Shown here: piece by piece, positions 8,855 through 58,856 of the stretch | Position numbering within the stretch: the first letter of the stretch is position 1 | How the letters are laid out: the number at the start of each line of letters is the position of its first letter | Source: Candidatus Saganbacteria bacterium | GTDB lineage: Bacteria > Margulisbacteria > WOR-1 > O2-12-FULL-45-9 | DNA: 64,000 nt | Direction of reading: 5' to 3' | Assembly (NCBI GenBank): GCA_016932255.1 | Contig: JAFGDE010000019.1 | Coordinates: 8,614-72,613 of the forward strand | Program-made: the position numbers and the translations under genes | The notes under the pieces: generated by a model | What the model saw: the letters and a program-made list of their open reading frames with translations, nothing else | What the model was told of the DNA's origin: nothing | The model's database searches: none

Positions 8855-9403
8855 CTAGAAGTAATTGACAATCTCGGACAGAGGCTTGCGCCGCTTGGGC
8901 GCGGACAGCCTTGCTTCTGCTGAATAGCCAAGGGTCAGCATGGCCACGACCTCCTGGTCCTTTGGTATGTCCAATAGTTTCCTGACCTTTTTTTCTGAGA
9001 ACCAGCCGATCCAGCATGAGCCAAGGCCCAATTCCCAGGCGGTCAGGACCATGTGCTCAAGAGCAATGCCTATATCCATATAATACCAGCGCCTGTTCAC
9101 AATGAATGAAGCAGCCCGATGAAGCAGGCTGATCGGTCCGGCCGTGGCCACGATGACCACCGGCGCCCGGGCGATAAAAGAGTTCATGATGTTCCTGGTG
9201 CCGAGCGGCATCTCGCCGGCCAGGGCGCGGATCTTTTCCTTATCACGCACCACGTAAAAATGCCAGGGCTGGGAATTCGAGGCCGAGGGCGCCAGCCTGG
9301 CCGCTTCCAGGACCAGGTCAAGCTTTTCCTGCTCCACCGGCCTGTCCTGGTATTCGCGCACGCTGAAACGTTCTTTTATTATATCAAGCACTTTTGAGCT
9401 CAT
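8855..9403 (-). CDS. Nitroreductase-family oxidoreductase
   Basis: 182 aa. RFSVREYQDRPV...LEAARLAPSASNSQPWHF...GLGSCWIG is typical of the nitroreductase fold. Confidence 0.85.
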   Translation of the reverse strand: MSSKVLDIIKERFSVREYQDRPVEQEKLDLVLEAARLAPSASNSQPWHFYVVRDKEKIRALAGEMPLGTRNIMNSFIARAPVVIVATAGPISLLHRAASFIVNRRWYYMDIGIALEHMVLTAWELGLGSCWIGWFSEKKVRKLLDIPKDQEVVAMLTLGYSAEARLSAPKRRKPLSEIVNYF

Positions 9404-10065
9404 ACGATACCTATGTCCCTGACAACGATCCTGCCGCAGTATTTTGGACCATCAGACTTGAAAAAACCCTTTTTAGCCGCGACAAATGTCACCGTTCTTT
9501 TCGCTTTGACCGCGCGGCCAAGCCTCCTGCCGGTATCAGCATCCAGACCTGAAGGCACGTCAACTGACAGCACCGGGGCTTTGTGGTCATTGATCCGGTC
9601 GATGATCGAAGCATAAGGCTCGCGGATATCAGCGTTCAAGCCAAGGCCAAAGAGAGCGTCGATGATCAAAGACGCGCGTTGAGGGAGCCTGCGAGTGAAC
9701 CCTGCCTGCCGGCAGGCAGGGCCTGCGGCTCCAATCCTCTTGAGAATGGCATAATTGGTCTTTGGGTCCGGTTTTAGTTTGGAGAGCTTGCCGACGATCA
9801 TGACCTCGACCCTGAGACCGGCATTGAGCAGGTGCCTGGCCGCGACCAGGCCGTCGCCGCCGTTGTTGCCCGTGCCGCAAACGATAACGACTGGACCGCT
9901 GCCCTTGATCAGCCGCAAGGCCTCTTCCGCCACACCCCTGCCCGCGTTCTCCATCAATATAACAGAGGGGATCCCCAGCTTCTTCTGCGCGTCCTGGTCG
10001 AACTTTTGGGCCTGTTTGACCGAGATGGTCTTTGCCATGCTTAGATTATATAATGGACCGAACAA
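9400..10065 (-). CDS. nnrE: NAD(P)H-hydrate epimerase (YjeF N-terminal family)
   Basis: 221 aa with LMENAGRGVAEE, VIVCGTGNNGGDGLVAARHL and IIDALFGLGL. The start may instead be the internal MAKTISV (10038). The gene carries an in-frame repeat insertion. Confidence 0.85.
   Translation of the reverse strand: MFGPLYNLSMAKTISVKQAQKFDQDAQKKLGIPSVILMENAGRGVAEEALRLIKGSGPVVIVCGTGNNGGDGLVAARHLLNAGLRVEVMIVGKLSKLKPDPKTNYAILKRIGAAGPACRQAGFTRRLPQRASLIIDALFGLGLNADIREPYASIIDRINDHKAPVLSVDVPSGLDADTGRRLGRAVKAKRTVTFVAAKKGFFKSDGPKYCGRIVVRDIGIV
9687..9732. repeat. Composite palindromic element inside the nnrE coding sequence
   Basis: GCCTGCGAGTGAAC + CCTGCCTGCCGGCAGGCAGG (exact 20-bp palindrome, 9701-9720) + GCCTGCGGCTCC. 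It reads in-frame as ...GPACRQAGFTRRL.... Confidence 0.85.
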
Positions 10066-13754: not shown

Positions 13755-13821
13755 ATTAGGAGCCTGAGACTAAACGTCTCGGCTCCTAATGGAACCGCGA
13801 AGTTCATTCGCAGGTTCCATT
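13755..13821. repeat. Two adjacent hairpins between the epimerase stop and the GT28 start; the second is an 'empty' type-B hairpin
   Basis: First hairpin: ATTAGGAGCC...GGCTCCTAAT (13755-13790). Second: AATGGAACCGCGAA-GTTCA-TTCGCAGGTTCCATT (13788-21). The same GGAACCGCGAAGTTCATTCGCAGG unit recurs at 37972-38003 and 56269-56287. It probably also acts as a terminator. Confidence 0.7.
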
Positions 13822-25572: not shown

Positions 25573-26492
25573 TCGTTGCGGCCGACCGCCAGCATTCTCT
25601 CGATCGCCAGTTTGGCTTTAGCCGCTGTTTCAGGCGCCACTCTAACCTCTGTCTTTAATTCCTCCAGCGACCAGAGCACTTTCTCCAGCGTGGTCAGCTT
25701 CATATTGGGGCAAACAGCGCCGTCATCCAACGGGTAGAACTTCTTTCCAAAACTGTCCTGCTGCAGCCTGTAGACCATGCCGACCTCTGTACCTACGATA
25801 AATTCTTTAGCCGATGTTTCCCTGGCGTACTTGAGCATGCCGCCTGTTGAGGCGACTTCATCAGCCAGAGCGATCGTCTCCGGCCGGCACTCAGGATGGA
25901 CCATGACCTTGGCTTGAGGATGCTGTTTTTTAGCAGCCAGAACATGTTCCGGCAGTATCCGGGCGTGGGTCGGGCAATAGCCCTGTGCCAGAATGAACTT
26001 CTTGTCAGGGACCTTGGTCGAAGTGTAATGCCCAAGGAACTTATCCGGCACAAAGATGATCTCTTTGGCGTCTTTCAGCGAGGCGCAGACCTTGATCGAA
26101 TTGGCGGACGTACAGCAAATGTCTGATTCAGCCTTGACCTCAGCTGAAGAATTGACATAACAGACCACTTTAGCCTTGGGATATTTCTTTTTCAGCTTCC
26201 TCACCCCGGCTGCGTCGATCATGTCGGCCATGGGACAGCCGGCATTAGCATCCGGCATGATGACTTTTTTGTCCGGCGAGATGATGGCCGCGGTCTCGGC
26301 CATGAAGTGGACCCCGCAAAAAACGATGGCCTGCGCTTTGGTCCGGGAGGCTTCCAGCGACAGGCCCAGGGAGTCGCCGCGAAAGTCCGCGATATCCTGA
26401 ACTTCGTCCGGCTGGTAATTATGCACCAGAATGACCGCGTCACGTTCTTGTTTCAGTTTATTTATCTTTTGAACTAATGAGTCCGCCGCCAA
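25569..26492 (-). CDS. nadA: Quinolinate synthase
   Basis: 307 aa with ILVHNYQ...FCGVHFMAETA...YVNSSAEVKA...HPEC. Confidence 0.9.
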   Translation of the reverse strand: MAADSLVQKINKLKQERDAVILVHNYQPDEVQDIADFRGDSLGLSLEASRTKAQAIVFCGVHFMAETAAIISPDKKVIMPDANAGCPMADMIDAAGVRKLKKKYPKAKVVCYVNSSAEVKAESDICCTSANSIKVCASLKDAKEIIFVPDKFLGHYTSTKVPDKKFILAQGYCPTHARILPEHVLAAKKQHPQAKVMVHPECRPETIALADEVASTGGMLKYARETSAKEFIVGTEVGMVYRLQQDSFGKKFYPLDDGAVCPNMKLTTLEKVLWSLEELKTEVRVAPETAAKAKLAIERMLAVGRND

Positions 26493-27603
26493 TGACCTCG
26501 TCTCCTTTATAAAATACCATAGACTGACCAGGAGTTATTGCTAACTGAGATTCTTTAAAAATTAACCGGGCTCTGGGCCTGCCTGCCGGACAGGCAGGTT
26601 CTAGGTGCTGGGTGCTGGGTGCTGGGACCAGCATCGCAGCAGCCTCCGGCGAATTATAGCGTATCTTGGCCATGACCGCCAAATCCCCCTCAGGTATACT
26701 GCCGGAAATATAATTGATCTCTTCAGCCGCAAGCTCCGTGCCCATGACATCCGCCTGGTCGCCGATAACGACCTGGTTCTTCTGCGGGTCGAGCCTGACA
26801 ACGTATTTGGGCCGTCCCTGGTAATGGCCAATGCCTTTGCGCTGGCCCAGCGTATAGAAACAAATGCCTTCGTGCTGGCCGACGACTTTGCCCTGCTGGT
26901 CAACAATATCGCCCGAGCGGACAGCCTCGGGACACTGCAAACGCAAAAAAGCCCCGTAATCATCATGATCGATAAAACAGATCTCCTGGCTCTCAGCTTT
27001 ATCATGCACTGATAGACCGAGCTCTTTGGCTTTCTTCCTAATCTCCTCCTTGGTCAGCTCACCCAGCGGGAATAAGGTCCGGCTCAGCCTGGCCTGATCA
27101 AGAACATAAAGAAAATACGACTGGTCTTTTTTCGGATCCTTGCCCTTTAACAATTTATAAATAACATGACCTTCATTCTTCATTCCGCACCTGCCTGCCG
27201 GCAGGCAGGATTCTTCATTCTGCATTATCCTCGCATAATGCCCCGTAGCTAACTTCTCCGCTCCCAGCTCTTTAGCTTCCTGCCAGAGCAGATCGAACTT
27301 GATCTCGCGGTTGCAGCGGATACAGGGATTGGGCGTTCTGCCCTGTTTATATTCATTGATAAAAACATCCACGACCTTCTGCCTGAACTCATCGCTCAGG
27401 TCAAAGACATGATGCTCGATGCCCAGCTTGTCTGCGACCTTTTTGGCTTCACGCGCTGCCTGGTCTTTGCCCGGCCAAACGATCATGGTCACCCCGATGA
27501 CCTCATGGCCCTGCTCTTTGAGCAAAGCAGCGGCCGTGGACGAATCAACCCCGCCGGACATGGCTAGAGCGACTTTTTGCCTGTTTTTAATGAAATTGCT
27601 CAT
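26458..27603 (-). CDS. mnmA: tRNA 2-thiouridine(34) synthase MnmA carrying two in-frame repeat-derived insertions
   Basis: 381 aa with PP-loop VALAMSGGVDSS, NPCIRCN, ATGHYAR, KDQSYFLY and ITPGQSMVFY. Two extra segments are encoded by repeat DNA (26578-26627 and 27170-27230). Confidence 0.9.
   Translation of the reverse strand: MSNFIKNRQKVALAMSGGVDSSTAAALLKEQGHEVIGVTMIVWPGKDQAAREAKKVADKLGIEHHVFDLSDEFRQKVVDVFINEYKQGRTPNPCIRCNREIKFDLLWQEAKELGAEKLATGHYARIMQNEESCLPAGRCGMKNEGHVIYKLLKGKDPKKDQSYFLYVLDQARLSRTLFPLGELTKEEIRKKAKELGLSVHDKAESQEICFIDHDDYGAFLRLQCPEAVRSGDIVDQQGKVVGQHEGICFYTLGQRKGIGHYQGRPKYVVRLDPQKNQVVIGDQADVMGTELAAEEINYISGSIPEGDLAVMAKIRYNSPEAAAMLVPAPSTQHLEPACPAGRPRARLIFKESQLAITPGQSMVFYKGDEVIGGGLISSKDK
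26578..26627. repeat. Palindrome variant plus 8-bp satellite inside mnmA
   Basis: CCTGCCTGCCGGACAGGCAGG (a 21-bp variant with a central A) followed by TTCTAGGTGCTGGGTGCTGGGTGCTGGGA. It reads in-frame as ...PAPSTQHLEPACPAGRPRA.... Confidence 0.85.
27170..27230. repeat. Type-C arm split by the 20-bp palindrome, inside mnmA
   Basis: CCTTCATTCTTCATTCCGCA + CCTGCCTGCCGGCAGGCAGG (27190-27209) + ATTCTTCATTCTGCATTATCC. It reads in-frame as ...MQNEESCLPAGRCGMKNEGH.... Confidence 0.85.
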
Positions 27604-36204: not shown

Positions 36205-36252
36205 GGAACCGCGGCGTTCAGCCTGCCTGCCGGCAGGCAGGCCGCAGGTTCC
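36205..36252. repeat. 48-bp composite palindromic element, copy 1
   Basis: GGAACCGCGGCGTTCAG-CCTGCCTGCCGGCAGGCAGG-CCGCAGGTTCC. Identical to the copy at 36815-36862. Confidence 0.9.
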
Positions 36253-36775: not shown

Positions 36776-36862
36776 GGGTTCGGGTTCTAGGTTCTGGGTT
36801 CTAGGATAAAAAATGGAACCGCGGCGTTCAGCCTGCCTGCCGGCAGGCAGGCCGCAGGTTCC
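36776..36862. repeat. GGGTTCT-type satellite plus 48-bp composite element, copy 2
   Basis: GGGTTCGGGTTCTAGGTTCTGGGTTCTAGG (36776-36805), then an exact second copy of the 48-bp element (36815-36862). Confidence 0.9.
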
Positions 36863-37920: not shown

Positions 37921-38003
37921 GCCTGCGGCCTGCCTGCCGGCAGGCAGGCTGAACGCCGCGGCTCCTTTTTTGGGAAACCGCGAAGTTCATTCGCAGGTTT
38001 CCC
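37921..38003. repeat. Filled composite element followed by an empty type-B hairpin
   Basis: GCCTGCGG-CCTGCCTGCCGGCAGGCAGG-CTGAACGCCGCGGCTCC (37921-65), then GGGAAACCGCGAAGTTCATTCGCAGGTTTCCC (37972-38003). Confidence 0.9.
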
Positions 38004-40587: not shown

Positions 40588-40602
40588 TGTACATCTTTGC
40601 TC

Positions 40603-40651
40603 GGAACCTGCGGCCTGCCTGCCGGCAGGCAGGGTTCACTCGCAGGTTTCC
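40603..40651. repeat. Filled type-B hairpin in the 5' region of the Rrf2-cysK operon
   Basis: GGAACCTGCGG-CCTGCCTGCCGGCAGGCAGG-GTTCACTCGCAGGTTTCC. Confidence 0.9.
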
Positions 40652-41080: not shown

Positions 41081-41145
41081 GGGGAAAAATGCAGAATGCC
41101 TAATGAAGAATGCAGAACTGTGGGGTGCCTACGGCACATTATTTA
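41081..41145. repeat. Type-C element left arm with a UNCG-loop hairpin
   Basis: GGGGAAAAATGCAGAATGCCTAATGAAGAATGCAGAACTGTGGG-GTGCCTACGGCAC-ATTATTTA. Confidence 0.8.
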
Positions 41146-41530: not shown

Positions 41531-41566
41531 CATTAATTCGTCATTCTTCATTCTGCATTATAATAA
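41531..41566. repeat. Type-C element right arm
   Basis: CATTAATTCGTCATTCTTCATTCTGCATTATAATAA, inverted relative to the left arm at 41081. Confidence 0.75.
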
Positions 41567-41629
41567 GCAGCAATCTTATTGCCAGCAAATCTCCTCAAAG
41601 AAGAGGCTAAATCGACAGGATCACGACAG

Positions 41630-41658
41630 TTGACATTAAAACCCGCCAGTGCCACAAT
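41630..41658 (+). promoter_or_regulatory. Promoter positioned for a leaderless CPBP transcript
   Basis: TTGACA (41630-35), 17 nt, CACAAT (41653-58), then 7 nt to the ATG at 41666. Confidence 0.55.
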
Positions 41659-41665
41659 ACCTGCC

Positions 41666-42487
41666 ATGAAATACAGACCTTGGGTTTTTATAGTCGCGGT
41701 TCTCCTGTTCAGCTGGCTGGTCCAGATCGTATTATTCACTGGAATGCTGCCGGCCAACCTGCTTATTCTCTACATGTTCGCTCCGGCGCTGACCGCTTTT
41801 ATTTTCTTTGTCCTGTTCAAGACTCCCTGGCGCGAGCAATTGGACCTATTCATCAGGCGGATCGATCTCTGGTCGATCGTTTTTGCCTTTTTCTACCCGT
41901 TCTTCTGGCTGAGCCTTGTGCTGCTGGTCGCGGTCTTGACCGGTCTGGGCCAGTTCAACGCCTCTTTTCTCTCAAAAGCCCTGGCCTGGCCATTCATCTC
42001 GTCATTCCTGATGCTGGTTGTCTTTGCTTTCCCCACGATGTGGGGGGAGGAATACGGCTGGCGCGGGTATTTACTGCCCGGGCTGGTGGAGCGCTACGGC
42101 AAACTTAACGCCACGCTTATATTAGGTCTGGTCTGGGGCTGCTGGCACATCCCGTCCTATTATATCCTTTACAGCCAGGCGGGGCTGGGCCAGCCGGTAT
42201 TATTAACTATAACGGGGATCCTGACGGTCGCGGTCGGCGCGTTCCCTTACACGTATCTATTCTACCGGACCCGCAATATCATTCCCTGCGTCCTGCTGCA
42301 CGCGGCCTACGACCTCGCCTCCGGGCACATATTCTTCGGCACGCCGGCTATTCCCGGGTTTACCGACGGCACTCCCGGCCTGGTAATGATGCCCTGGCCC
42401 ACAGCGATGATGCTATTGATCGTGACCGGCGCGGTATTAGCTGGAGGTTTTGTGTTCTTATTTGGCAAGGAGGCAAAGGGGACTTGA
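41666..42487 (+). CDS. CPBP (CAAX/Abi) family intramembrane glutamic endopeptidase, copy 1
   Basis: 273 aa, polytopic, with the catalytic motifs [12 protein letters not shown] and HAAYD. Confidence 0.8.
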   Translation: MKYRPWVFIVAVLLFSWLVQIVLFTGMLPANLLILYMFAPALTAFIFFVLFKTPWREQLDLFIRRIDLWSIVFAFFYPFFWLSLVLLVAVLTGLGQFNASFLSKALAWPFISSFLMLVVFAFPTMWGEEYGWRGYLLPGLVERYGKLNATLILGLVWGCWHIPSYYILYSQAGLGQPVLLTITGILTVAVGAFPYTYLFYRTRNIIPCVLLHAAYDLASGHIFFGTPAIPGFTDGTPGLVMMPWPTAMMLLIVTGAVLAGGFVFLFGKEAKGT

Positions 42488-51042: not shown

Positions 51043-51070
51043 TTGAAGCGGCTTTATAAAAGTGTACAAT
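51043..51070 (+). promoter_or_regulatory. Promoter for CPBP copy 2 (leadered)
   Basis: TTGAAG, 16 nt, TACAAT, then a 20-nt leader with AGGAGG before the ATG at 51091. Confidence 0.5.
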
Positions 51071-51090
51071 ACGCCCAGGAGGCGATCATC

Positions 51091-51888
51091 ATGCAAATAA
51101 AATGGAAAGAGATCTTCTGGTTCAGCTTCCTGGCTTACCTGTTCACCTGGATCTACTGGCTCAGCGCGCTCTGGACCAAAAGCCCCAACCACCCCTTTTA
51201 CTCCGTGCCGTTCATCGGCGAAGGCCTGGGCATGTTTGGCCCCATGTTGGCTGCCATGGCCATGCGCGCCTGGGTCAGTAAAGAAGGCTTTAAGGGCTCG
51301 CTCGGTCTAACACGCCCGATCAAGTTCTATCTGATCGCCTTCTTCGCCCCACTGCTCTTCGTCCTCTTCCTGATCATCTTTAACCAAATAACCGGCCTGG
51401 GCCGCTTTGACTGGGTCTTTAACGTGCCCCTGGCCAGAATGATCCCCATTGCCATCGGCCTGATCTTCCTGTTCATCCCCCTGGGCCTGGGCGAAGAATA
51501 CGGCTGGAGAGGCTACCTTTTGCCCAGAGTCCTGCCGCTGGGAGAAGTTAAAGGAACTATCCTGCTGGGAATAATTTGGGCGCTCTGGCATCTGCCGGTC
51601 CTGACCCTTAGGCCCGGAGCCCTCTGGCTCAGCATCCCGCTCTTTACCGCGGCCGTGATCTTATTGGCTTTTCCCTTTACCTGGCTGTTCCGCGCGGCCG
51701 GGGCCAGCGTGCTGGTCGTCTCGCTCTTCCACAGCGCCTTCGACGTCTGGGGTGATTTCTTCACTTCAGCCATCGCCTACCCGGGCCAGGACCAGTTGAT
51801 CGTGGGCGCCGGCGGCGTGGTCAGCATGGCCATGATGGCGGTGATCGTCGTCCTGGCTTACTCGGTGTTCAAAAGGCCTACCGGCTGA
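51091..51888 (+). CDS. CPBP (CAAX/Abi) family intramembrane glutamic endopeptidase, copy 2
   Basis: 265 aa with [12 protein letters not shown] and HSAFD, polytopic. Confidence 0.8.
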
Positions 51889-52037: not shown

Positions 52038-52691
52038 TCAACCTCTCGCCGCGTGCCTGACAAAACCCATCACGCGGATCTCGACCTGCAGAGGATCGAG
52101 CAGGATGTCGGATATCCCCCGGTGACTGCCGGATCCTGTCCAGTAGTCGTCCAGCATCTTCTGAAACTGGCCTCGGCCAGCACGCAGCAGCCACCTCTGG
52201 TTCTCAATAAGATAGTCAAAAGTATTGCGGTCCAGCCAGCGGACCGGCAAGCGGCCTGAGCTCAACGCCTGCGGCCGCAGCGCTACCTCGAGCTCAAAGA
52301 CCTCGCCGAACCTGGCCGCGTCCTCAGGCGAGGTCGTGGTATAAACAGAGGTCAAGCGGGACGGCGAATCAGGGCAGTTCTTCTGCCGGTATTTCTCAAG
52401 CTGCTCTTCCATCGGTAAGTATTTGAACATAGGAGCTTGCTGCTCAGCGGTCGCAGCGTAAGGCCTGGCATATTCCTGCCCCGGCTGGGGCAAATGGTTG
52501 GGGCTAAATCCTGAGTATAGCACAACCCTGCAGCCCTGGCGCAAACGATCCAGCAGCTCAGCTTCATTGCGCAGTGACGAAATGTGGACCCTGAGGCCGG
52601 AAATGAGCGGACGCCAGGCCGGGCGGACAGACCGTTGCGCAGGCAGCGGCGGCGGTTGGCACGGCACTCTCATTGGTGCTGAAGTTCTCAT
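52038..52691 (-). CDS. Duplicated hypothetical protein, short copy (no TM region)
   Basis: 217 aa. It shares MRTSAP.RVP, the upstream leader DNA and the C-terminal domain (CPDSPSRLTSVYTTTSPEDAARFGEVFELEVAL...PVRWLDRNT...GISDILLDP) with 43194-44072. Confidence 0.55.
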   Translation of the reverse strand: MRTSAPMRVPCQPPPLPAQRSVRPAWRPLISGLRVHISSLRNEAELLDRLRQGCRVVLYSGFSPNHLPQPGQEYARPYAATAEQQAPMFKYLPMEEQLEKYRQKNCPDSPSRLTSVYTTTSPEDAARFGEVFELEVALRPQALSSGRLPVRWLDRNTFDYLIENQRWLLRAGRGQFQKMLDDYWTGSGSHRGISDILLDPLQVEIRVMGFVRHAARG

Positions 52692-56231: not shown

Positions 56232-56268
56232 ATAGATGCTATAGTGTCAAGCGTTAACTCATTAAGAC

Positions 56269-56347
56269 CCGCGAATGAACTTCGCGGCTTAGTTTGTTAT
56301 ACTGAATTAATAAGTTAGCCGAGGCGCCTGCCTGCCGGACAGGCAGG
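56269..56347. repeat. Empty type-B hairpin (reverse orientation) and a 21-bp palindrome variant
   Basis: CCGCGAATGAACTTCGCGG (56269-87) and CCTGCCTGCCGGACAGGCAGG (56327-47). Confidence 0.85.
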
Positions 56348-56383
56348 TTCAGCCTCCGGCGCCAGCGGAAAAGGAGGACCACT

Positions 56384-58733: not shown

Positions 58734-58856
58734 ACCTGCGGCTAAACGCCGCGGTTACGCTTTTTAGTTCAGGAAACCGCGAACCTGCCTGCCGGCAGGC
58801 AGGGTTTACTCGCCGGTTTCCTGGTTTTCTTTCCCAGAACCTAGCGCCTAGATCCC
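58734..58856. repeat. Empty host hairpin, filled type-B hairpin and satellite tail
   Basis: ACCTGCGGCTAAACGCCGCGGTTA (58734-57, no palindrome). GGAAACCGCGAA-CCTGCCTGCCGGCAGGCAGG-GTTTACTCGCCGGTTTCC (58772-821). CCCAGAACCTAGCGCCTAGATCCC (58833-56), which overlaps the suf gene stop. Confidence 0.85.

Follow-up and report, generated by a model that had tools for sequence, protein, structure and literature searches.

Two in-frame segments of mnmA from a Candidatus Saganbacteria bacterium are composed of small, nested repeat modules that recur in the surrounding DNA

INTRODUCTION

Selfish DNA within essential protein genes is best documented so far for Rickettsia, whose palindromic elements (RPEs; Ogata et al., 2000) are, as summarised in PMC1779305 and PMC10969869, about 100–150 bp long, occur both between genes and in frame within coding DNA, and are confined to the Rickettsiales. 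Here we analyse a stretch of 64 000 nt (hereafter the window) from a Candidatus Saganbacteria bacterium of the Margulisbacteria (assembly GCA_016932255.1, contig JAFGDE010000019.1), in which mnmA, the gene for tRNA 2-thiouridine(34) synthase, carries two additional in-frame segments made of short palindromes and tandem heptanucleotides. We consider it probable that these extra segments of MnmA are copies of small dispersed repeat modules which have landed in the gene and are read through as protein.

Several described systems invite comparison. Margulisbacteria are a sister lineage of the Cyanobacteria. In heterocystous members of the latter, the gene for RNase P RNA contains tandem heptanucleotide repeats of the STRR type, according to the title of a paper on the subject. 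The small dispersed repeats (SDRs) are, in the passages drawn on here, reported only in Nostocaceae, and one of them, SDR5, is characterized there as a very small module that inserts precisely into the short motif HIP1. Yeast mitochondrial GC clusters and byp elements are small, mobile, GC-rich palindromes that insert into coding sequences as well as into one another; byps break the reading frame and the ribosome hops over them, T4 gene 60 being a similar case of bypass. MITEs, typically of 50–500 bp, possess terminal inverted repeats and target-site duplications. Each family of bacterial REPs is tied to a cognate RAYT gene. By definition REPs lie outside genes, and the tetranucleotide GTAG or CGTC forms their head (in part after the title of PMC3733652). 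Other elements use them as targets.

RESULTS

Composition of the two mnmA segments

The first segment (site 1; 27171..27226, minus strand) reads on the coding strand AATGCAG AATGAAG AAT-palindrome-TGCGG AATGAAG AATGAAG and encodes ..MQNEESCLPAGRCGMKNEG.., the codons being ATA ATG CAG AAT GAA GAA T-CCTGCCTGCCGGCAGGCAGG-T GCG GAA TGA AGA ATG AAG G. The palindrome, CCTGCCTGCCGGCAGGCAGG (27190..27209; hereafter pal20), is perfect over its 20 nt, has a hairpin energy of −13.9 kcal/mol and is read as C-L-P-A-G-R; together with one adjoining T it makes up 21 nt, i.e. seven codons. Its flanks are heptamers of the form AATGMAG (coding strand; period 7 according to TRF; repeat family D1). An earlier sequence-only reading of the window had described an arm split by the exact 20 bp palindrome at this position, which is what we find at 27190–27209, with the addition that the flanks, too, are heptamers.

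The second segment (site 2; 26566..26625, minus strand) consists on the coding strand of three copies of CCAGCAC, then CTAGAAC, a 21 nt palindrome and CCAGAGC.., and encodes ..PAPSTQHLEPACPAGRPRA... Its palindrome (pal21; 26578..26598, coding strand CCTGCCTGTCCGGCAGGCAGG) is a variant with one extra central base. The sequence-only reading was right about this 21 bp palindrome at 26578–26598, but the three copies of an 8-mer, GGTGCTGG, that it saw beside it are really the heptamer GGTGCTG, present 3.3 times with period 7 and 100% matches (TRF, 26604–26626).

The frame relations at both sites are strict. Excising 21 nt at either site leaves five phased heptamers, and removal of only 20 nt at site 1 would, as read from the sequence, result in a frameshift and a stop. 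pal20 contains no stop codon in any frame (it gives PACRQA, LPAGRQ or CLPAGR), and stop codons are absent from every in-gene insert that we describe, all of which keep the frame. The encoded peptides are those given in the earlier reading, MQNEESCLPAGRCGMKNEGH at site 1 and PAPSTQHLEPACPAGRPRA at site 2; they add two cysteines at the former (SCLPAGRCG) and one at the latter. The window MnmA has 23 residues at site 1 and 20 at site 2, the minimum among orthologs being 3 at each. The 16–20 extra residues suggested beforehand hold in comparison with the shortest clade orthologs (about 20 aa at site 1 and about 16 aa at site 2) but not with the solved MnmA structures (S. pneumoniae 2hma/9hln and E. 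coli 2der), relative to which the excess is 15 and 13 aa.

The host gene and the predicted location of the inserts

mnmA is an intact open reading frame (ORF) of 381 aa (26458..27603, minus strand). All three MnmA Pfam domains are present (PF03054, 1.2e-70; PF20259, 9.4e-19; PF20258, 1.6e-13), giving the domain set of the family, i.e. an N-terminal PP-loop ATPase (HUP), a central PRC-barrel and a C-terminal beta-barrel, with the PP-loop motif SGGVDS at residues 16–21. The protein matches at 100% the NCBI MnmA from a Candidatus Saganbacteria metagenome-assembled genome (MAG), encoded on a contig of 76 kb. Every residue that is invariant in an alignment of 120 orthologs is kept, including C94, C97 and C209, so by its cysteines (CxxC plus a distal Cys) and its predicted overall fold the protein appears to be a genuine MnmA.

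An AlphaFold model built on the alignment of the 120 homologs has a pLDDT of 88.2 and a pTM of 0.86, and Foldseek aligns it with the crystal structures 2hma, 2der, 2det and 2deu at TM scores of 0.78–0.88. Low confidence is limited to the termini and the two insert loops: at site 1 the pLDDT falls below 50 at residues 132–142, between the paired strands 124–128 and 149–153, and at site 2 the block 331–340 has a mean pLDDT of 52, between the paired strands 321–328 and 344–354. In the model both inserts are therefore at the tips of beta-hairpins, in loops predicted to be compatible with the host fold.

The same modules elsewhere in the window

That the two segments derive from repeat DNA, as the sequence-only reading proposed, is borne out by the distribution of palindromes and heptamers, which occur at about 20 other places in the window, mostly intergenic. 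There are seven exact copies of pal20, six of them besides that at mnmA site 1, and one copy with a single mismatch; pal21 occurs twice, the match spanning 25 nt (56326–56350, family D15); dinucleotide shuffles lead to an expectation of 0.00 in both cases. According to the gene map and Pfam, two of the pal20/pal21 copies lie in mnmA, one in nnrE and seven outside confirmed genes.

The copy in nnrE (YjeF_N, NAD(P)H-hydrate epimerase; 9400..10038, minus strand; PF03853, 1.8e-50; 100% match to the NCBI MAG protein P0121) constitutes a third in-frame insert (9684..9731, minus strand). It has the form of a hairpin, GGAGCCGCAGGC-pal20-GTTCACTCGCAGGCTCC, encodes GAAGPACRQAGFTRRLP, and folds as RNA at −35.3 kcal/mol (z −3.07). 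In the ortholog L127 the same hairpin is empty (GGAGCCGCGAAGTTCATTCGCAGGCTCC), the window copy being exactly 21 nt longer. Another close nnrE ortholog, L126, has a different but still complementary stem (GGGCAAA...TTTGCCC); most of the remaining NnrE homologs are longer at the insert position, with what we take to be native sequence.

Outside genes the palindrome is usually found inside a small GTTCA-loop hairpin. One such composite at 36205..36252 has an identical 48 nt copy at 36815–36862 (family D3, 100% identity); a hairpin copy, GGAACCTGCGG-pal20-GTTCACTCGCAGGTTTCC, lies between genes at 40597..40651 (family D2); and in the intergenic copy GGAAACCGCGAA-pal20-GTTTACTCGCCGGTTTCC (58772..58821, palindrome at 58784) the palindrome amounts to exactly 20 nt when set against the empty hairpins. 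The latter, i.e. the host module without palindrome, are exemplified by TGGAACCGCGAAGTTCATTCGCAGGTTCCA at 13791..13820, with others at 37972–38003 and 56266–56285. A further pal20 (37929..37948) is just upstream of the start of an NIL/Fer4 gene and adjoins the empty hairpin at 37972–38003, and the intergenic twin of the site-2 palindrome (56327..56347, family D15) also sits within a host hairpin. An intergenic array of AATCCGA heptamers is broken at 48692..48742 by a palindrome copy that has one mismatch and by a second, degenerate copy; the degenerate one is TGCCTAACGGCAGGCAGG, and the two are 33 nt apart in a single array (48680–48750), which shows that the same heptamer array can be struck repeatedly outside genes as well.

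Heptamers of the site-1 family, AATKNNG, form nine other arrays of three to five units (families D1 and D5), one at 41088..41117 and the others starting at 41532, 44258, 44344, 44815, 44911, 48842, 54160 and 54621; none of the nine is inside an ORF with a Pfam match. Altogether, TRF scores no fewer than 12 distinct arrays of period 7 across the window. A known RNA family can be discarded as the identity of these repeats, since Rfam at the gathering threshold gives only one tRNA in the window.

Inserts in orthologous mnmA genes

Where a source is named for the 120 MnmA homologs examined, it is Margulisbacteria or Saganbacteria. Seven ortholog loci were retrieved; nadA is directly downstream of mnmA in each of them and is followed in five by a response-regulator gene. 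Both sites are long in most clade orthologs and strongly variable in length across the 120; more than five extra residues are present at site 1 in 105 of them, and 15 are essentially without site-1 insert (e.g. GHYARIVGTKLLKG). Orthologs are thus often long at these positions. Segments of equal length but unrelated to repeats would, by the sequence-only reading's own standard, have spoken against it, but every site-1 segment that was read as DNA proved to be a heptamer array or hairpin repeat. At site 2 such short-repeat DNA is present in three of the seven loci; the content comprises tandem 8-mers (GTGGTTAG four times in L002), heptamers or a small hairpin in some orthologs and is native-looking in others. 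Site 2 is a weaker hot spot than site 1.

The increments contributed by the palindrome are uniform. At the site-1 codons L002 has five heptamers (AATGCCG AATGCCG AATTCCG AATGACG AATGAAG) and no palindrome, and its difference from the window is exactly CCTGCCTGCCGGCAGGCAGG plus one T, i.e. 21 nt. Between L001 and L125, which are 80% identical as DNA, there is a single clean gap of 21 nt, CCTGCCTGCCGGCAGGCAAGG, in an array of AACMTCM heptamers at site 1. With the nnrE pair described above, the palindrome adds exactly 21 nt in all three ortholog pairs compared as DNA (two mnmA, one nnrE). The base that restores the frame is placed after the palindrome at site 1 (T), in the right arm in L001 (A), before the palindrome in nnrE (C) and in the centre at site 2 (T); its different position in each gene copy is what selection for the frame would leave. 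At the protein level an apparent palindrome block of seven residues is seen in three further orthologs (P0029, P0079 and P0095). For P0029 the gain emerges from a comparison, at this level only, of ALRIT[CLPAGTA]RY with ALRVTRY in P0025, and P0079 and P0095 have a CLPAG-type block within their site-1 repeat arrays. In L124 site 1 is a short heptamer array, four copies of GCGTTAC encoding ALRVTRYA.

The inserts also turn over rapidly. Pairs of orthologs that are 85–92% identical outside both sites hold unrelated inserts, e.g. QPPTPFSPSPLLRGKGIGDRGGY in P0017 against VPGF in P0038 (92% identical). On a neighbour-joining tree of 120 leaves the insert type requires 73 changes, whereas shuffled types need 82 on average and never fewer than 75, and each of the five palindrome-bearing orthologs needs a separate gain. 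These five mnmA orthologs have their palindrome at site 1, despite intact pal20 seeming rare in such genomes. Sequence native to the MnmA of this lineage was considered as the source of the inserts and ruled out by the 15 insert-free orthologs and by the near-identical orthologs with unrelated inserts. At the level of aligned sequences, the comparison shows that inserts come and go between related genomes.

A second family of inserts in mnmA and other enzymes

Another insert at mnmA, designated SPSPLLRGKG after its peptide, is a hairpin of about 60–65 nt made of AACCCCT-type heptamers. Among three genomes the insert DNA is 85–89% identical and mnmA itself only 63–69%; since its identity exceeds that of the gene, the insert would be younger, or more constrained as DNA, than mnmA. 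Another mnmA, that of L194, uses the second open frame of the element.

A scan of metagenomes for the hairpin core yielded 32 stretches, several per contig, about half of them intergenic and about half in frame within long ORFs. Pfam identifies five kinds of host: QueA, UPF0004 plus radical-SAM (MiaB-like), chorismate-binding (TrpE/PabB-type), MetH and Mur ligase. A conserved nucleic-acid structure specific to mnmA is excluded, because other genes and intergenic DNA carry copies. This second family in five other enzymes, like the third in-frame copy of pal20 in nnrE, supports the likeness to RPEs that had been drawn from the sequence of mnmA.

A QueA ortholog on a metagenome contig (L169) contains, besides SPSPLLRGKG, two more repeat-like peptides, ..IESRKSKIEHRNE.. 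and ..GRTQNAEHGARNAG.., which resemble the insert types of mnmA sites 1 and 2, so a single gene may hold three inserts; its Pfam match covers 367 residues for a model of 322 positions.

Distribution and contexts of pal20 in other genomes

Species-representative genomes of many phyla contain the exact sequence CCTGCCTGCCGGCAGGCAGG in at least 120 stretches (L004–L123). IMG/VR contigs, which are filed as viral, contain it in 35 (L128–L162); pal21, likewise widespread, was found in 10 IMG/VR stretches. Searches of IMG/VR with three control palindromes of matched composition gave 0, 0 and 0 matches. We calculate that any given 20-mer should turn up about 0.5 times in 596 Gb. The hosts include many Patescibacteria, Omnitrophota, Planctomycetota, Verrucomicrobia, Elusimicrobia, Ignavibacteria and Bdellovibrionales, further Thermodesulfovibrionales, Chloroflexi and proteobacterial MAGs, and Bacteroidota, among them the cultured Winogradskyella, Flagellimonas, Longitalea, Flavivirga, Aquiflexum, Agriterribacter and Aestuariivivens. 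When one symmetric pair of positions was left free, a degenerate scan returned 42 exact copies, 14 with a single departure and one with a compensated departure, all departures being transitions. Chance, or a general effect of GC-rich hairpins, can be rejected as the source of pal20, given the zero expectation in shuffles of the window and the absence of matches to the control palindromes in IMG/VR.

In these genomes pal20 interrupts tandem heptamers or occupies the middle of a host hairpin or of another pal20. We compared 170 distinct sites with control positions. Host-hairpin flanks were present at 10% of the sites against 3.2% of controls (p = 7e-5), and period-7 flanks at 7.6% against 0.5%, or, with a stricter cutoff, 3.5% against 0.1% (Fisher p ~3e-7). 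At the 170 sites direct repeats of 2–6 nt were at chance frequency, i.e. no target-site duplication was found, and the flanks contained no conserved head or target motif, the only regularity being a bias for A at −1 and T at +1 (A 41%).

Of the 145 copies distant enough from contig ends to be tested, 25 are within long ORFs. Host genes confirmed by Pfam are FtsK, an RfbB-like dehydratase, GatB and ScpB, with pal20 in frame in FtsK, GatB and ScpB. One copy interrupts a tRNA-Met(CAT) gene (L152:2284), which ARAGORN recognizes with pal20 in place, forming a long variable arm, and recognizes again once pal20 is deleted. In L033 a tRNA is called only after deletion of pal20 and the case is ambiguous, and D-arm-like cases in L018, L040, L088, L102 and L159 are truncated or not callable as tRNA by ARAGORN across the junction. 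In L129, as in these five loci, pal20 is in or beside tRNA-like sequence, and several further copies are within 150 nt of tRNA genes.

The eight copies in 64 kb here, set against none in 342 kb of related DNA, look like a lineage-specific burst.

Other repeat-rich parts of the window

An array of six GGGAYGA heptamers at 59955–59998 fills the junction between sufC and sufD; sufC ends within it, taking from it the final codons and the stop (..KGMRDEG*), and sufD may begin in it. Adjacent GmrSD_N/DUF262 and RiboL-PSP HEPN genes at 45788–47388 (minus strand), where the window is richest in repeats, are likely a small defence locus. Paralogous cassettes (41579–42487 and 51043–51888; 43194–44138 and 52038–52691; 44295–44426 and 44862–44993) correspond to two Rce1-like/CPBP protease genes, two ORFs without assigned function that share a 50 nt 3′ end, and a 132 nt direct repeat (90% identity); AATKNNG heptamer arrays, with a GTGCC-NNNN-GGCAC hairpin after them, surround all of these.

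DISCUSSION

The analyses presented here demonstrate the identity of the mnmA inserts with repeats, their nesting, the preservation of the frame, the location in loops, the presence and absence among orthologs, and the same behaviour in other genes. They confirm the observation made in the sequence-only reading and support its interpretation.

We suggest that at each site a short array of five heptamers at the tip of a beta-hairpin would have formed a first layer, within which pal20 or pal21 became nested as a second layer; that the array came first and the palindrome second is the order that we infer. Purifying selection would retain an insertion only if it adds a net multiple of three nucleotides and is free of stop codons, and surviving insertions would be confined to surface loops that tolerate extra residues. 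Once present, a loop of this kind may act as a landing pad that attracts further modules and so reinforces itself; alternatively or additionally, the pad may exchange its contents, the same two loops turning over rapidly across Margulisbacteria. The modules may be mobilized in trans through a single-stranded hairpin intermediate, in the manner of REP/RAYT or IS200/IS605. The preference for loops and slipped repeats, the lack of target duplication and the perfect hairpin all point to a single-stranded intermediate, although we regard this whole mobilization step as a tentative and rather doubtful proposal. Somewhat more credible to us, if still short of an even chance, is the idea that pal20 is an autonomous-looking mobile module of 20 nt, with a master sequence conserved across phyla and in contigs filed as viral, insertion without target duplication, single-stranded loops as preferred targets (those of hairpins, its own centre, slipped heptamer arrays, the variable loop of a tRNA gene), bursts of copying and a horizontally shared mobilizer.

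A number of points weigh against a repeat origin of the inserts by mobile copies and their harmless translation. The sister loci L001–L003 (21 kb each) have heptamers and a palindrome in mnmA without a second copy, and intact pal20 is absent from 342 kb of other Margulisbacteria DNA (L001–L003, L124–L127 and L163–L196); in these genomes the inserts may not be ‘genome-wide’ repeats, and slippage in situ or exchange of alleles may contribute. A scan of 20 ORFs, located beside mnmA and where the window is rich in repeats, revealed no transposase, no RAYT and no reverse transcriptase, and hence no candidate enzyme for mobilization. By the metrics used, about 85% of pal20 sites lack both a clear host hairpin and flanks of period 7. 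Apart from the identical MAG protein, the databases contained no nearer relative of the window mnmA than 60% identity, and because the next best homolog is only that similar, the empty-site state had to be reconstructed from distant orthologs. The window MnmA is also without about nine residues (27450–27500, residues ~42–50, between the first strand-helix units) that include a ‘GCCS’ motif present in 115 of the 120 clade orthologs, only four others being without it; with GCCS absent, full MnmA activity is not guaranteed. That the inserts are translated and the enzyme is still active is something we infer.

Among other explanations, native hypervariable microsatellites deserve most attention; here the heptamers would have arisen in place by slippage and formed local hairpins under a genome-wide mutational bias, with no mobile copies. 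Period-7 arrays are indeed abundant throughout the window, the sister loci have their mnmA heptamers nowhere else within 21 kb, and site-1 sequences consist of heptamers even when they are short (GCGTTAC x4 in L124). Slippage, however, cannot make the same exact 20-mer at seven sites in the window and in many phyla, nor does it account for a SPSPLLRGKG hairpin that is dispersed in unrelated genes and better conserved than its hosts, or for unrelated inserts in orthologs 92% identical, and we hold this explanation to be unlikely.

Alternatively, the inserts could be adaptive, the loops having been recruited for a new function (cysteines near the sulfur transfer, or binding of tRNA or a partner) under diversifying selection. 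This would fit the cysteines added, two at site 1 and one at site 2, the retention of more than five extra site-1 residues in 105 of the 120 orthologs, and insert DNA that is better conserved than the gene. On the other hand, the same sequences are present in intergenic DNA and in unrelated enzymes, insert types are almost random on the tree, the low pLDDT of the inserts is consistent with disorder, and 15 orthologs have no insert at all. Adaptive recruitment may hold for individual inserts, site 1 with its two cysteines among them, but with copies between genes and an almost random spread over the tree it is unnecessary and, as a general explanation, in our view quite improbable.

We are still less inclined to believe that the inserts remain untranslated owing to ribosome hopping, RNA editing or splicing. 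Stable mRNA hairpins (−13.9 kcal/mol for pal20, −35.3 kcal/mol for the nnrE composite) would suit such a bypass, and pal20 is also found in a tRNA gene, where translation is impossible. Yet the increments are exactly 21 nt in three DNA pairs although the intergenic element has 20 nt, with three blocks of seven residues at the protein level; the inserts are all free of stops, a constraint that bypass or splicing would make needless; and deletion of 20 nt at site 1 yields a frameshift and a stop, which together leave little room for this explanation. An artefact of assembly or binning, or a decaying pseudogene, can practically be dismissed: the window does come from a MAG and its MnmA lacks a motif of 115 of the 120 orthologs, but modules of 20–60 nt are shorter than typical sequencing reads, inserts of this kind occupy identical codons in independent ENA, JGI, NCBI and Logan assemblies (the comparison with sister genomes that the sequence-only reading had called for), pal20 is present in genomes of cultured isolates, and the frame, catalytic residues and predicted fold are intact.

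If mobile copies of repeat modules are indeed the source, as we favour, such modules repeatedly rebuild the same surface loops of MnmA, NnrE, QueA, MiaB-like, MetH, Mur ligase and TrpE/PabB-type enzymes, and would offer a natural and ongoing supply of new loop sequence for conserved proteins. There is a practical caution in this, in that length variation among such orthologs is repeat DNA and not lineage-specific functional domains. Should pal20 be a mobile module in its own right, it would represent the smallest known class of cross-phylum mobile DNA, would together with heptamer arrays keep remodelling the surface loops of core enzymes, and would raise the question of what copies a 20 nt hairpin so faithfully over such distances. 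We found no description of pal20 or of the insert peptides in the searchable literature, and nothing on repeats in Saganbacteria.

How, finally, do these modules relate to the systems already described? MITEs resemble them as small non-autonomous repeats able to fuse in frame with host ORFs, whereas pal20 is a single perfect palindrome of 20 nt and shows no target-site duplication, which sets it apart from that class. The yeast byps differ in that the frame is kept here by the strict 21 nt increment, which argues for ordinary translation and against placing the inserts among bypassed elements. With REPs (and REPINs) the palindromes have in common a size of 20–40 nt, a high GC content, many copies and a plausible single-stranded hairpin intermediate, but pal20 starts with CCTG, has neither the GTAG nor the CGTC head in 170 flanks, spans phyla, and is found inside genes, three copies being in confirmed genes of the window, so that the extragenic location that defines REPs does not apply.

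Closer are the cyanobacterial repeats: the dispersed tandem 7 nt arrays of the window qualify as STRR-like, though the unit sequences differ, and the nesting typical of SDRs (21–27 nt) is found for pal20 inside heptamer arrays, inside GTTCA-loop hairpins and inside itself; in-frame invasion of many enzymes and spread across phyla are, in contrast, not described in the passages on STRRs and SDRs consulted. Closest in behaviour are the RPEs, with which the modules share dispersed palindromic repeats, both intergenic and in frame in unrelated housekeeping genes, fold-compatible sites and lineage-specific bursts. Judged by one family occurring between genes and in frame within them, and by insertion sites that the models predict to be compatible with the fold, the modules belong with RPE-like selfish DNA; judged by size (palindrome 20–21 nt, hairpin ~30, heptamer arrays 21–35, SPSPLLRGKG ~65) and host, they are not RPEs proper. 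The modules of 20–65 nt are moreover nested, hit the same loop repeatedly and have a palindrome shared across phyla. Our data thus suggest that selfish DNA in genes is widespread in an unrelated, free-living candidate phylum, in the form of modules five to seven times smaller than RPEs and stacked upon one another. Relative to the selfish palindromic DNA already known in protein genes, the novelty lies in module size, in nesting, in hot spots that are hit recurrently and in the cross-phylum element of 20 nt.

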